NCBI GenBank assembly: GCA_964520015.1
Contig: CAZFMA010000027.1
Coordinates: 1 to 32,117 of the forward strand
Reading direction: 5' to 3'
Length of the DNA stretch: 32,117 nt
DNA from: an uncultured Candidatus Saccharibacteria bacterium
GTDB taxonomy: Bacteria > Patescibacteriota > Minisyncoccia > Phycocordibacterales > UBA2100
The notes under the pieces are model-generated. The model did not search any database. It had not been told where the DNA came from and worked only from the letters and a program-made list of their open reading frames with translations. Each line of letters begins with the position of its first letter. The stretch's first letter is position 1. This document shows, piece by piece, positions 2,432 through 3,527 of this stretch. A program made the position numbers and the translations under genes.

Positions 2432-3088
2432 ATGAGTGGCACTCCCTTCTCGACCGGGCAGCTCGGCAAGCTGCAGAACATCGTCAATATCGGCATCGCC
2501 ACGGCGCTGCCGAAGGTGGCGAAGCGTTTCGAGCCCAAGAGCACCCTCAAGGCGCTCGAGGGCAAGGGTGAAGTGTTTGCCGGCCGTATCGAGGGCGCTC
2601 TCGAGAAGGCCATCACGAGCATGCTCGTGTTGCGCCGCATCGGCACGGCGACCGTCGTACTCGACGGGCCGCACGACCCCGACTCCTACCACCGGACCCG
2701 CGAGGGCCTCTGGGTCTACGGCGACTATCGGAGCCGCATCGTCGCCGAGGCGAAGCCGACTCCGGCAGGTACGACCTTCAAGGTCGACATCGCCGAGATC
2801 GGGCAGGAGGGCGGCGCGACGGACGAGGAGATCGAGGACGCGTTGCCCAAGAACCACCTCTTCGGTGAGTCGCAGGTCTGCGCCGTCATCGCGGGCCTCA
2901 TCGCCAAGCAGCCGCGCGGCGAGGAAGGCGACCTCGACAATCGGGGCTATGCCAATCTCTTCTACACGTCTTCCTGCGTCGTCAACGTCGACTGGGGCGC
3001 CGTCCGCCGGGAGTGGAACGTCATCACGTGGAATCGCGACGACAGCAGGTGGGGCGCTGGCGTTCGCGTCCTGTCTCCCGCCAACTGA
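2432..3088 (+). CDS. DGR target (variable) protein with C-terminal VR
   Basis: The ORF ends in the VR. I prefer ATG 2432, which is preceded by AGAAGGAA, over the TTG at 2354 in the ORF track. About 65 percent GC, so spurious ORFs fill the other frames. No signal peptide or TM segment is visible. Confidence 0.8.
   Translation: [218 protein letters not shown]
2972..3083 (+). repeat. DGR variable repeat (VR)
   Basis: 112 nt align without gaps to 3416-3527. There are 15 differences, all at TR adenines. The VR covers the last 37 codons of the target gene. Confidence 0.92.
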
Positions 3089-3103
3089 CCCCTCGCTCAC
3101 TTT

Positions 3104-3122
3104 GTCCCGCCGGAGGCGGGAC
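3104..3122 (+). promoter_or_regulatory. GC-rich hairpin 20 nt downstream of VR (candidate DGR target-recognition hairpin)
   Basis: GTCCCGCC-GGA-GGCGGGAC: an 8-bp GC stem with a 3-nt loop. DGR systems are known to use a hairpin/cruciform 3' of the VR. Confidence 0.55.
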
Positions 3123-3174
3123 GGAATCTTCGGTCCCTTTGACACTGTGTCACTTGGGCCGAGGATTCTTTTTT

Positions 3175-3183
3175 TGATACAAT
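3175..3183 (+). promoter_or_regulatory. Extended -10 promoter element TGATACAAT, candidate promoter for the TR RNA
   Basis: Matches TGnTAnAAT. It follows the T-run after the target gene and lies about 230 nt upstream of the TR. Confidence 0.4.
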
Positions 3184-3415
3184 AGAGAAGAAATTTCCGG
3201 CACTGCGGCGGTTACGGCTTCCGCGTGGAGATTTTGGAACGAAGCGTGCCGGAATTCTTTTGGCTACGGCTTGAAGGCGCGCGCGTGCTTCGCTTTCAAC
3301 AAAAAACATTGGTCAGTTGGTATCCGCAATCGGTGGGCTTCGAGACCCCACGTCAGGTTCACTCCGGAGAGTATTCGACGGAGGGTGGCACGGATGGCTG
3401 CGGATACGAGAGGGC

Positions 3416-3527
3416 TCCTGCGTCGTCAACGTCAACTGGAACGCCGACAACCGGAAGTGGAACGTCAACACGTGGAATCGCGACGACAACAGGTGGAACG
3501 CTGGCAATCGCGTCCTGTCTCCCGAAA
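3416..3527 (+). repeat. DGR template repeat (TR)
   Basis: Invariant copy of the VR. It holds 30 adenines, many in AAC/AAT codons, and 15 of them are substituted in the VR. All 82 non-adenine positions are identical. Confidence 0.92.

Follow-up and report, generated by a model that had tools for sequence, protein, structure and literature searches.

The prototype diversity-generating retroelement (DGR) is that of the Bordetella phage BPP-1, in which the components are ordered mtd-avd-TR-brt, with TR denoting the template repeat. The accessory protein Avd is present in most, not all, DGRs. For the Patescibacteria, DGRs have been described as a 'CPR set' with the architecture B3, TR-(avd)-RT, by Wu et al. 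2018 (PMC5758913), and as DGR clade 2 by Roux et al. 2021 (PMC8144416).

We analysed a stretch of 32,117 nucleotides, hereafter the window, from contig CAZFMA010000027.1 of an uncultured Candidatus Saccharibacteria bacterium (GCA_964520015.1). It very probably contains a complete chromosomal DGR of the Patescibacteria (CPR) clade, in which a target gene with a variable repeat (VR) at its end is followed by the TR, by avd on the reverse strand and by the gene for the reverse transcriptase (RT). The Patescibacteria DGRs (PMC5758913, PMC8144416) are the closest fit and nothing contradicts membership: a reversed avd gene, a single adjoining target and the lack of recognisable domains in that target are all shared, and the relatives with a named organism come from the same host group. 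The order of TR, reverse avd and RT next to one target matches architecture B3, and the DGR is of an already known kind. It extends by a single element a clade whose abundance in Patescibacteria was already established, and for this reason the finding of a DGR adds little by itself. The compactness of the cassette, about 2.7 kb, may interest DGR engineers.

The repeat pair and the adjoining genes

The VR is located at positions 2972-3083 on the forward strand and covers codons 181-217, with which the target gene closes (37 codons), whereas the TR, at 3416-3527 on the same strand, is non-coding and lies between a structured leader and a stem-loop. Recomputation of the alignment agreed exactly with the original prediction, in that the two repeats form a gap-free match of 112 nt that includes 15 mismatches, all of which are confined to adenines of the TR (15 of the 30 adenines and 0 of the 82 other positions). 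The two 37-residue peptides that had been read from the repeats were also correct, and the repeat is in frame with the ORF at 2432-3088. As had been claimed, most mismatches fall in AAC or AAT codons: 11 of the 15 affect the first two positions of seven such codons in the TR, and the remaining four are found in GAC, AAG and GAA codons. From TR to VR, the substitutions comprise nine A>G, three A>T and three A>C changes, in a TR composed of 30 A, 34 C, 31 G and 17 T. If 15 mismatches were scattered randomly over 112 positions, the probability of all being located on the 30 adenines would be C(30,15)/C(112,15) = 9.9e-11.

A repeat search identified the VR and TR as the largest direct repeat of the window, with the copies 444 nt apart and a similarity that ends abruptly on both sides. 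A pattern made from the TR, degenerate at its adenines, matched only the VR and the TR across the 32 kb and nothing in shuffled sequences, which rules out a second target in the window. At 3081-3082, the final pair of mismatches (GAA in the TR and GCC in the VR) is located at the extreme edge of the homology, where an alignment with a one-base gap is also possible. These two could reflect a fixed difference between the ends of the VR and TR (IMH versus IMH*) rather than mutagenesis; when they are left out, 13 of 13 mismatches still fall on adenines. Immediately before them, at 3064-3080 on the forward strand, the VR has an adenine-free, GC-rich 3' end, TCGCGTCCTGTCTCCCG, and the same 17-mer is present in the TR. 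By analogy with BPP-1 as described in PMC5758913, this segment is the likely IMH counterpart, although the repeats diverge within a few bases after it and no extended IMH-like homology is visible.

Downstream of the TR, the gene at 3925-4920 on the forward strand starts with TTG after an AGGA motif and encodes a DGR reverse transcriptase of 331 amino acids (RVT_1, E = 1.4e-23; phrog_1423, E = 4.9e-108). It is 32% identical to Brt of the Bordetella phage BPP-1 (E = 3e-50), and the best match in the PDB was 8ub7_A (E = 1.5e-42), followed by an RT labelled as retron-type (1.5e-20) and a group II intron RT (3.2e-20). The motifs LPLGNLTSQ and YADD are intact and align with IPIGSLTSQ and YMDD of bRT. 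Judged by these similarities and by the signatures [LIV]GxxxSQ and YxDD, the RT is of the DGR type and closest to Brt. The avd gene (115 amino acids) is located at 3548-3895 on the reverse strand, opposite to the TR and RT, and was recognised by Pfam bAvd (E = 1.7e-13; 51.4 bits with a cut-off of 40), by the PHROG for the Avd protein of DGRs (E = 4.4e-19) and by NCBIfam DivGenRetAVD, to which it aligned over the full length with 67.6 bits, under the curated cut-off of 80. Its position and strand are the same in the relatives. The avd and RT genes are divergent with just 29 nt between them and both have TTG starts, and a consensus scan of the window yielded no promoter-like site for either of them.

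Taken together, the adenine-only pattern, the RT, the Avd, a VR in the end of an ORF and a TR in a non-coding RNA support the DGR reading. The location of the VR inside the 3' end of the target gene and of the TR outside any gene corresponds to the two placements that serve as DGR criteria.

The target gene and its protein

The target gene at 2432-3088 on the forward strand encodes a protein of 218 amino acids, which is helical in its N-terminal part and ends in an alpha/beta domain that spans about 150 residues. The ATG at 2432 agrees with homologues that start with MSGTPF. We identified 43 close homologues and 1517 cluster representatives at 50% identity, and on sequence similarity the target belongs to a large unannotated Patescibacteria family. 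In an alignment of this family, the variable columns correspond to the positions of the AAY codons in the TR.

The protein contains no recognisable domain and no transmembrane segment. Searches with the target gave no match in Pfam, NCBIfam or PHROG, no Pfam match at E <= 10 was obtained for 26 members of the family, and a sequence-profile search of the PDB with the target returned nothing relevant. Two AlphaFold models had pLDDT values of 94.8 and 96.5, and in Foldseek searches with these two confident models no entry of the PDB or BFVD reached E < 0.1. The sole C-type lectin domain in the Foldseek list had a TM score of 0.31-0.35 and an E-value of 3.5. A comparison with Mtd using hhalign gave a probability of 0.1% and no similarity, and the target displayed no sequence or profile similarity of the kind that characterises the C-type-lectin families (CLec, FGE-sulfatase, DUF1566 and Mtd).

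The GC content at third codon positions (GC3) is 0.89 in the target gene versus about 0.5 in the neighbouring genes. The bias is family-wide, with values of 0.66-0.89 irrespective of the composition of the host, and hints at an undescribed constraint on the target DNA or mRNA. The papers on Patescibacteria DGRs that we read give no description of this bias.

Several elements flank the gene. Upstream, a promoter-like site on the forward strand (TTGACT-17-TATAGT, 2276-2304) agrees with the consensus at 10 of 12 positions, a consensus match only. A GC-rich inverted repeat, GTCCCGCC-GGA-GGCGGGAC, is located at 3104-3122, 16 nt past the stop codon of the target, and forms an 8-bp stem in the predicted fold. 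Different yet complementary sequences are present at the same place in three related loci (L005, L006 and L012), and the repeat is absent or unclear in three others (L003, L008 and L009). It is directly followed on the forward strand by a long hairpin and a T run (3123-3175), in which 14 bp are predicted to form between 3123-3136 and 3156-3169, with an apical palindrome GACAC/GTGTC (3140-3152) inside a conserved TTGACAC...GTCAC motif. This hairpin is conserved across 7 loci and is likely to be the terminator of the target gene.

The template RNA and a proposed mechanism

The segment between the hairpin and the TR has the features of a structured RNA. At 3175-3183 on the forward strand we identified an extended -10-like element, TG-A-TACAAT (TGATATAAT in most relatives), which at the level of the consensus is a putative promoter of the TR RNA. 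A TTTTG-ATAyAA-T block is largely conserved in most of the 19 loci compared and precedes the first conserved helix by about 6 nt. Covariation over these 19 loci supports a structured leader RNA of about 225 nt directly 5' of the TR (3189-3411, forward strand), and in all cassettes the leader lies between the promoter-like site and the TR. On the same strand, its helices are P1 (3192-3198/3227-3233, with 3203-3212/3217-3226), P2 (3236-3249/3283-3297, with 3255-3264/3269-3278) and P3 (3320-3331/3396-3407), of which the last encloses 3335-3338/3345-3348 and 3362-3370/3375-3383; an invariant CAGTTGG is located at 3314-3320.

Over the 61 pairs of the leader in the 19 loci, 93.4% of the cells were paired, as compared with 35-53% when the partners were slid. 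Two-sided changes were observed in 44 of the 61 pairs, amounting to 187 such cells versus 26-51 in the slid controls, and the observed covariation values were reached in 0 of 500 shuffles. A covariance model of P1 and P2 gave 26 matches (E <= 9e-12), one per cassette and none elsewhere, including 7 outside the seed, and the leader of the window element scored 100.6 bits, comparable to its relatives. The region of the leader and TR matched no Rfam family at the gathering and E-value thresholds, and the papers that we read on Patescibacteria DGRs contain no description of the leader RNA.

Two smaller structures are predicted at the other end of the TR. In the minimum-free-energy fold, the GAAACU at the TR end pairs with an AGUUUC 4 nt downstream to form a small hairpin (3524-3539, forward strand). 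As judged by eye, a weak indication, about 12 of 18 relatives could form 4-6 bp of AACU...AGUU pairing, and a role of this hairpin in priming would be speculation. The second structure is a terminator-like site at 3539-3570 on the forward strand, which overlaps the stop codon of avd and consists of a 9-bp stem-loop (3539-3561), CTCCCGCAC-TTACC-GTGCGGGAG, followed by TTTTCGTTTC. A stem of 7-12 bp about 8-20 nt past the TR was found in 18 of the 19 loci, with different sequences, retained complementarity and TTTT after it. A 9-bp stem-loop just downstream of the TR has been reported in 207 of 278 DGRs (10.1101/2023.10.23.563531), and by analogy the stem-loop at 3539-3561 is the likely Avd-binding stem-loop. 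The site at 3539-3570 may in addition terminate the TR RNA. If the stem-loop and U run terminate transcription, almost no 3' spacer would remain; in the Bordetella DGR, the priming site is located in the 3' spacer. A long-range duplex between GGTGGC in the leader (about 3388) and GCCACC past the TR (about 3589) was weighed as an equivalent of the Bordetella 'stop' duplex and rejected, because conserved GGW codons of avd on the other strand account for the downstream motif and the two sides of the duplex do not covary.

We propose that a short non-coding RNA would start at the extended -10-like promoter near 3175-3183 and consist of the structured leader (about 225 nt), the TR (112 nt) and the 9-bp stem-loop with its U run. 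The RT and Avd would bind this template RNA, with the stem-loop past the TR as the likely Avd site. The leader would probably provide the RT-binding and stop functions, since 8 nt separate the end of P3, the helix that closes it, from the TR. The RT would then synthesise cDNA from the TR with misincorporation opposite adenines, and the cDNA would take the place of the VR in the 3' end of the gene at 2432-3088, probably guided by the adenine-free, GC-rich end of the repeat and the GC hairpin downstream. The expected outcome is a recoding of the 10 AAY codons for Asn together with about 8 further codons, with a theoretical repertoire of about 3e16 protein variants. As the spacing alternates, the variable residues would apparently occupy a single face of a beta-hairpin at the C-terminus and of the loops that follow. 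Here we infer the transcript ends, the binding of RNA parts to proteins, the priming site and the function of the target protein.

Relatives, activity and comparison with known systems

About 25 loci, drawn from metagenomes and Patescibacteria MAGs, have the same cassette order and adenine-specific VR/TR pattern, with a distance of about 420-555 nt from the VR to the TR. Wherever the organism of a relative is named, the relative is a Patescibacteria MAG. The order of TR, reverse avd and RT is also seen in L005, L006, L008, L009, L012, L042 and others. The PilM and PilB proteins of the window are 64-69% identical to their counterparts in a Kaiserbacteria MAG and in L003, and type IV pilus genes adjoin the cassette in the window, L003, L007, L020 and L028/L039. 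In other lineages, the neighbours of the cassette encode IleRS, RecO or a DUF11 protein. The target has no prepilin-like N-terminus, and a functional link between the target and type IV pili is a weak lead.

Comparisons among close relatives reveal variation at the expected sites. Along 2436 nt, L016 departs from L014 only by 17 N, each of which is located in the VR and at a TR adenine. L020 and L029, which are 97.6% identical, have identical TRs and differ at 20 sites in the VR, of which 19 are at TR adenines. The VRs of sister elements are heterogeneous in nature, which shows activity for the lineage. For the copy in the window, we infer from its intact genes and the lack of divergence at non-A positions that it would be currently active. 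The original prediction had stated that the mismatch pattern proves a DGR and implies ongoing hypervariation; the DGR itself stands, while 'proves' and 'ongoing' exceed what the window can show.

The sequence might instead be a fossil DGR, with a VR that was rewritten in the past and an element that no longer works in this genome. We regard this as unlikely, given that the three ORFs and the catalytic motifs are all intact, that the VR and TR agree at each of the 82 non-A positions, that the scores of the leader RNA and stem-loop resemble those in the relatives and that the sister elements vary in nature. The search of the contig index for near-identical contigs of the window element, which found none, exact protein look-ups included, is nevertheless consistent with a fossil, as are the non-ATG starts of RT and avd with no recognisable promoters. 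So too is decay within the family, where the target of L007 has acquired indels and non-A changes and L001, L002 and L004 are orphan targets with no TR within 6 kb.

Assembly artefacts, in which the VR merges a mixed population into a consensus or chimera or is the product of a mis-join between two strains, are very improbable. The consensus N at variable positions in the related assembly L016 points in this direction, and for any assembled DGR the precise string of the VR may therefore be composite, but this would alter only which VR variant appears and not the existence of the DGR, and the window contains no N and has an intact reading frame. An ordinary duplication of the gene end that later diverged by point mutation, which the original prediction had named as the alternative to be checked in related genomes, would account for a two-copy direct repeat 444 nt apart and is excluded for practical purposes, because the arrangement and the adenine-only asymmetry recur independently in about 25 related loci, 15 of 15 differences are on adenines of one copy (P ~1e-10), RT and Avd adjoin the repeats and the second copy sits within a covarying non-coding RNA.

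As a DGR, the element resembles that of BPP-1 in the adenine-specific mutagenesis from TR to VR, the location of the VR in the target's 3' end, the use of AAY codons as variable units and the Avd accessory protein. The RT, with 32% identity to Brt and common IGxxxSQ and YxDD motifs, the GC-rich inverted repeat after the VR and the stem-loop of about 9 bp just past the TR are further similarities. It differs in that avd is on the opposite strand and separates the TR from the RT, whereas avd of BPP-1 is upstream of the TR, and in that a conserved structured RNA of about 225 nt precedes the TR, whereas the spacer of BPP-1 is about 140 nt and downstream. Moreover, the region downstream of the TR is the antisense of avd, the VR/TR homology stops a few bases past the last variable codon with no 34-bp IMH, the target has no similarity to Mtd, and the element is chromosomal and not phage-borne.

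With proteins that have a C-type lectin fold (Mtd, TvpA and those of archaea and Thermus), the target shares a C-terminal VR in which an invariant scaffold of hydrophobic or aromatic residues (V, W and R) alternates with variable positions coded by Asn codons. In the models, the order of elements in the last 100 residues or so (strand, helix, helix, four strands) would be compatible with a lectin-like topology. Pfam, PDB sequences and hhalign revealed no similarity of the target to these proteins. To our knowledge, every DGR variable protein with a solved structure has the C-type lectin fold.

We tentatively suggest that the lineage departs from the Bordetella paradigm by a permuted RNA, with a large structured domain of three covarying helical domains 5' of the TR and a single stem-loop after it, together with a scaffold other than the C-type lectin fold. 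If the RNA is permuted, RT binding, cDNA termination and perhaps priming would be supplied from upstream. Roux et al. 2021 (PMC8144416) left open the function of CPR DGR targets and the need for a C-type lectin scaffold, and the target family is a tractable test case since it comprises more than 1,500 sequence clusters and has a very confident model. The lineage also poses the question of why the target gene alone is so GC-rich, and it bears on whether the RNA-protein logic of the Bordetella DGR holds in elements with an inverted avd and a conserved RNA upstream.

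The repeat pair and its cassette

Direct alignment of the variable repeat (VR, 2972-3083) with the template repeat (TR, 3416-3527) was gap-free over 112 nt and yielded 15 differences, all located at TR adenines (15 of the 30 adenines and 0 of the 82 other TR bases), as claimed in the original prediction. The substitutions were 9 A>G, 3 A>T and 3 A>C, and the probability that 15 of 15 differences fall on adenines by random placement is 9.9e-11. The prediction was also right in that the VR is in frame and forms the last 37 codons of the ORF at 2432-3088, in the two peptide strings that it quoted for the VR and TR, and in that the changes concentrate in the first two positions of AAC and AAT codons (11 of 15). 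The homology has sharp edges at both ends; the last two mismatches (3081-3082) are at such an edge and may reflect a fixed difference between the repeat ends instead of mutagenesis. In a repeat search no direct repeat of the window was larger than this pair, and a search with every TR adenine replaced by N recovered no copies in the 32 kb beyond the VR and TR.

The avd gene (3548-3895, minus strand) matched Pfam bAvd with 51.4 bits (cut-off 40), the PHROG family 'Avd protein of DGR' (4.4e-19) and, over its full length, NCBIfam DivGenRetAVD with 67.6 bits, which is below the cut-off of 80. The reverse transcriptase (RT) gene (3925-4920, plus strand) matched RVT_1 (1.4e-23), and its product was 32% identical over 296 residues to Brt, the RT of the Bordetella phage BPP-1 diversity-generating retroelement (DGR) (E 3e-50), with the motifs LPLGNLTSQ and YADD aligned to IPIGSLTSQ and YMDD in Brt. 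The best PDB match of the RT was 8ub7_A (1.5e-42), which is identical to Brt in the aligned region, followed in the same search by an RT labelled retron-type (1.5e-20) and a group II intron RT (3.2e-20). The two genes are divergent, both start with TTG and are separated by 29 nt (3896-3924; roughly 10-60 nt in relatives), and no promoter-like sites for either were found.

Homology searches yielded 43 close homologues of the target protein of about 215 aa each, none with a Pfam domain, the single taxon-labelled one being from a 'Patescibacteria group bacterium'. When one genome per species was scanned, ten related loci emerged, each from a Patescibacteria MAG (labelled Kaiserbacteria, Saccharibacteria, Parcubacteria or Paceibacterota), and a scan with a TR-specific pattern gave 28 additional stretches from metagenomes. 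In about 25 loci the VR ends a homologous gene, the TR follows 420-555 nt later on the same strand, and nearly all mismatches coincide with TR adenines (e.g. 18/18, 20/20, 19/19 and 21/21); where the contig was long enough, a reverse-strand avd and then the RT gene followed the TR. In the protein alignment (VVxVxWxAxxRxWxVxxWxRxDxRWxAGxRV), the columns that vary match the AAY codons of the TR. An ordinary duplication as the origin of the repeat pair is excluded, since adenine-biased pairs recur in the same arrangement in these about 25 loci. The adenine-only pattern, the adjacent avd and RT genes and the like loci together support the predicted reading of the repeat pair, and the element is almost certainly a DGR.

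The cassette spans about 2.7 kb in the order target/VR-TR-(avd)-RT, with avd and RT directly downstream of the TR. Its flanks contain ordinary chromosomal genes, with arginase, a ComF-like phosphoribosyltransferase and pterin dehydratase upstream, and pilM, pilN, pilO, pilB, pilT and pilC followed by DNA ligase and GatA downstream; no phage genes were seen among the flanking genes of the window. The adjoining type IV pilus genes, which include a response regulator, cover 5067-12763, and a DGR or target is located beside such genes also in the related loci L003, L007, L020 and L028/L039, while the neighbours in other lineages are IleRS, RecO or a DUF11 protein. A 45-nt direct repeat (15026-15070 and 15742-15786, 71% identity) in a region of short, unannotated ORFs downstream of pilC may mark paralogous pilin-like genes. 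Further downstream, a primase-helicase fusion (22922-25042) with an AEP-TOTE domain (5.8e-73) and ResIII/Helicase_C, and a Pif1-family helicase with an HTH_40 domain (26394-28085, minus strand), may be conflict-system or mobile-element genes; four tRNA genes are located nearby at 28331-31480.

Some relatives deviated from the common arrangement. Locus L007 in a Kaiserbacteria MAG (CAVYCR010000005.1) contained, at 5986-6495, a decayed target paralogue with an indel, many non-A changes and a truncated N-terminus, placed between pterin dehydratase and pilM as in the window and lacking TR, avd and RT; the same contig also has an intact cassette (L006) at a distance of 33 kb. No TR, avd or RT was found within 6 kb of the full-length targets of loci L001/L002 (6001-6657) and L004 (6001-6654), which are either orphans or targets of a remote DGR.

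RNA elements around the template repeat

From the target stop codon to the TR, the 330-nt interval is conserved, with a mean column identity of 74%, in lineages whose proteins are only 40-60% identical. An 8-bp GC hairpin (3104-3122), which differs in sequence yet stays complementary in three related loci (L005, L006 and L012), is followed by a 14-bp hairpin with a T run (3123-3175) that is predicted to be the likely terminator of the target gene. At the tip of this putative terminator, a TTGACAC..GTCAC motif with a palindrome (3139-3152), near-invariant in 7 loci, may bind a protein or belong to the DNA target structure. Next comes a largely conserved, promoter-like extended -10 element, TGATAyAAT (3175-3183), the promoter-like sequence being TGATACAAT, and about 6 nt later starts a structured leader RNA of about 225 nt with three helical domains (3189-3411).

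To quantify the support for the leader structure, we examined 61 pairs in 19 loci. Pairing was retained in 93.4% of cells, as compared to 35-53% with partners slid, and 44 pairs had changed on both sides, with 187 such cells versus 26-51 in the slid controls; none of 500 shuffles reached the observed values. A covariance model of domains 1-2 gave exactly one match per cassette (26 matches, E <= 9e-12), 7 of them in loci outside model building, and none in the orphan-target loci or elsewhere in the window. No Rfam family matched the leader. Each of its first two hairpins carries a GGYTAMGGCT cap (UACG-type loops), and CAGTTGG at 3314-3320 is invariant. The helix that closes the third domain stops 8 nt short of the TR, and in several relatives the VR/TR homology reaches right up to this helix, which would fit a role in stopping cDNA synthesis. 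Two contigs with relatives, L042 (IMGVR_UViG_3300012942_000022) and L043, carry a viral label in IMG/VR; L042 contains the whole cassette and a second target-like copy (3630-3789), and its leader matched with E 8.9e-12.

A 9-bp stem-loop (3539-3561, plus strand), followed by UUUUCG, is located about 11 nt downstream of the TR, and in 18 of 19 loci a covarying stem of 7-12 bp occupied a similar position. Handa et al. found an Avd-binding stem-loop directly downstream of the TR for 207 of 278 DGRs (10.1101/2023.10.23.563531). The stem-loop of the window matches this description and also resembles an intrinsic terminator. With its U run (3539-3570) it overlaps the avd stop codon (3548-3550) and the last avd codons, and thus a single DNA segment provides an RNA element from its plus strand and avd codons from its minus strand. 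The template RNA would be a discrete RNA of about 385 nt consisting of leader, TR and stem-loop, in which the leader may take over functions held by the 3' spacer in the Bordetella phage; we infer its transcript ends, priming site and protein contacts.

The target protein and its gene

Ten AAY codons are in frame in the TR, and each can yield 15 amino acids and never a stop. With the eight other A-containing codons of the TR, the theoretical repertoire amounts to 1.2e18 DNA variants and 2.9e16 protein variants. In very confident AlphaFold models (pLDDT 94.8 for the full length, 96.5 for residues 65-218) two neighbouring strands (183-189 and 194-200) show variable positions in alternation with invariant V and W, and further variable positions are found in the loops that come next; from this spacing, the variable residues probably share one exposed face. 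No signal peptide or transmembrane segment was seen in the protein.

A profile search collected 1517 cluster representatives of the family at E <= 0.001, and 215 under the stricter limit of E <= 1e-30, with a conserved core formed by the C-terminal ~150 residues and with variable N-termini. Sequence searches of the target against PDB profiles, Pfam (E <= 10, 26 members) and, using hhalign, Mtd were empty, and Foldseek with the target models gave no match at E < 0.1 in the PDB and a viral structure library. Roux et al. predicted a very divergent lectin variant for CPR targets (PMC8144416). The target might be such a variant, because the predicted secondary-structure order of its last ~100 residues would fit a compact lectin-like topology and the top TM-score in the Foldseek list (0.31-0.35, E 3.5) was to a C-type lectin domain.

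The target gene (2432-3085) has a GC content of 0.66 and a GC3 of 0.89 (0.889 in the non-VR part), whereas thirteen other genes in the window have GC3 values of 0.46-0.61, with 0.61 for avd and 0.58 for RT. In most of about 30 related loci (L003-L042) the target GC3 was 0.66-0.88 while RT and avd followed the host, as in the comparisons of target with adjacent RT/avd in L005 (0.67 versus 0.32) and L014 (0.74 versus 0.33). The bias is family-wide, regardless of host composition.

Activity and relation to known elements

Searches for related contigs found none near-identical to the window element, but two sister elements show activity. The first, L014 and L016, are identical over 2436 nt save for 17 positions, all in the VR opposite TR adenines. 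At these positions L016 (Ga0051980_10038825) has N, as single or double N, in a contig that elsewhere has the sequence of L014/L033, which come from other records. A consensus built from a polymorphic population would look like this, and the N positions are a direct footprint of VR heterogeneity within the sample. In the second, L020 and L029, the strains are 97.6% identical and the TRs are the same, with 19 of 20 VR differences opposite TR adenines. In the window copy all genes and motifs are intact and 0 of 82 non-A positions have drifted, which points to a recent homing event; this copy is probably active at present.

The DGR papers that we compared contained no description of the leader RNA or the compositional bias. 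Three features of the element stand out: a target scaffold that is unannotated and possibly not of the lectin type, the structured RNA upstream of the TR, and the unusual GC3 of the target gene. Wu et al. 2018 designated the core architecture 'TR-(avd)-RT' as B3 and left most CPR VRs without a fold assignment (PMC5758913), and Roux et al. 2021 described a DGR clade restricted to Patescibacteria with targets lacking recognisable domains (PMC8144416). The window element fits both descriptions and is thus of a kind already known.
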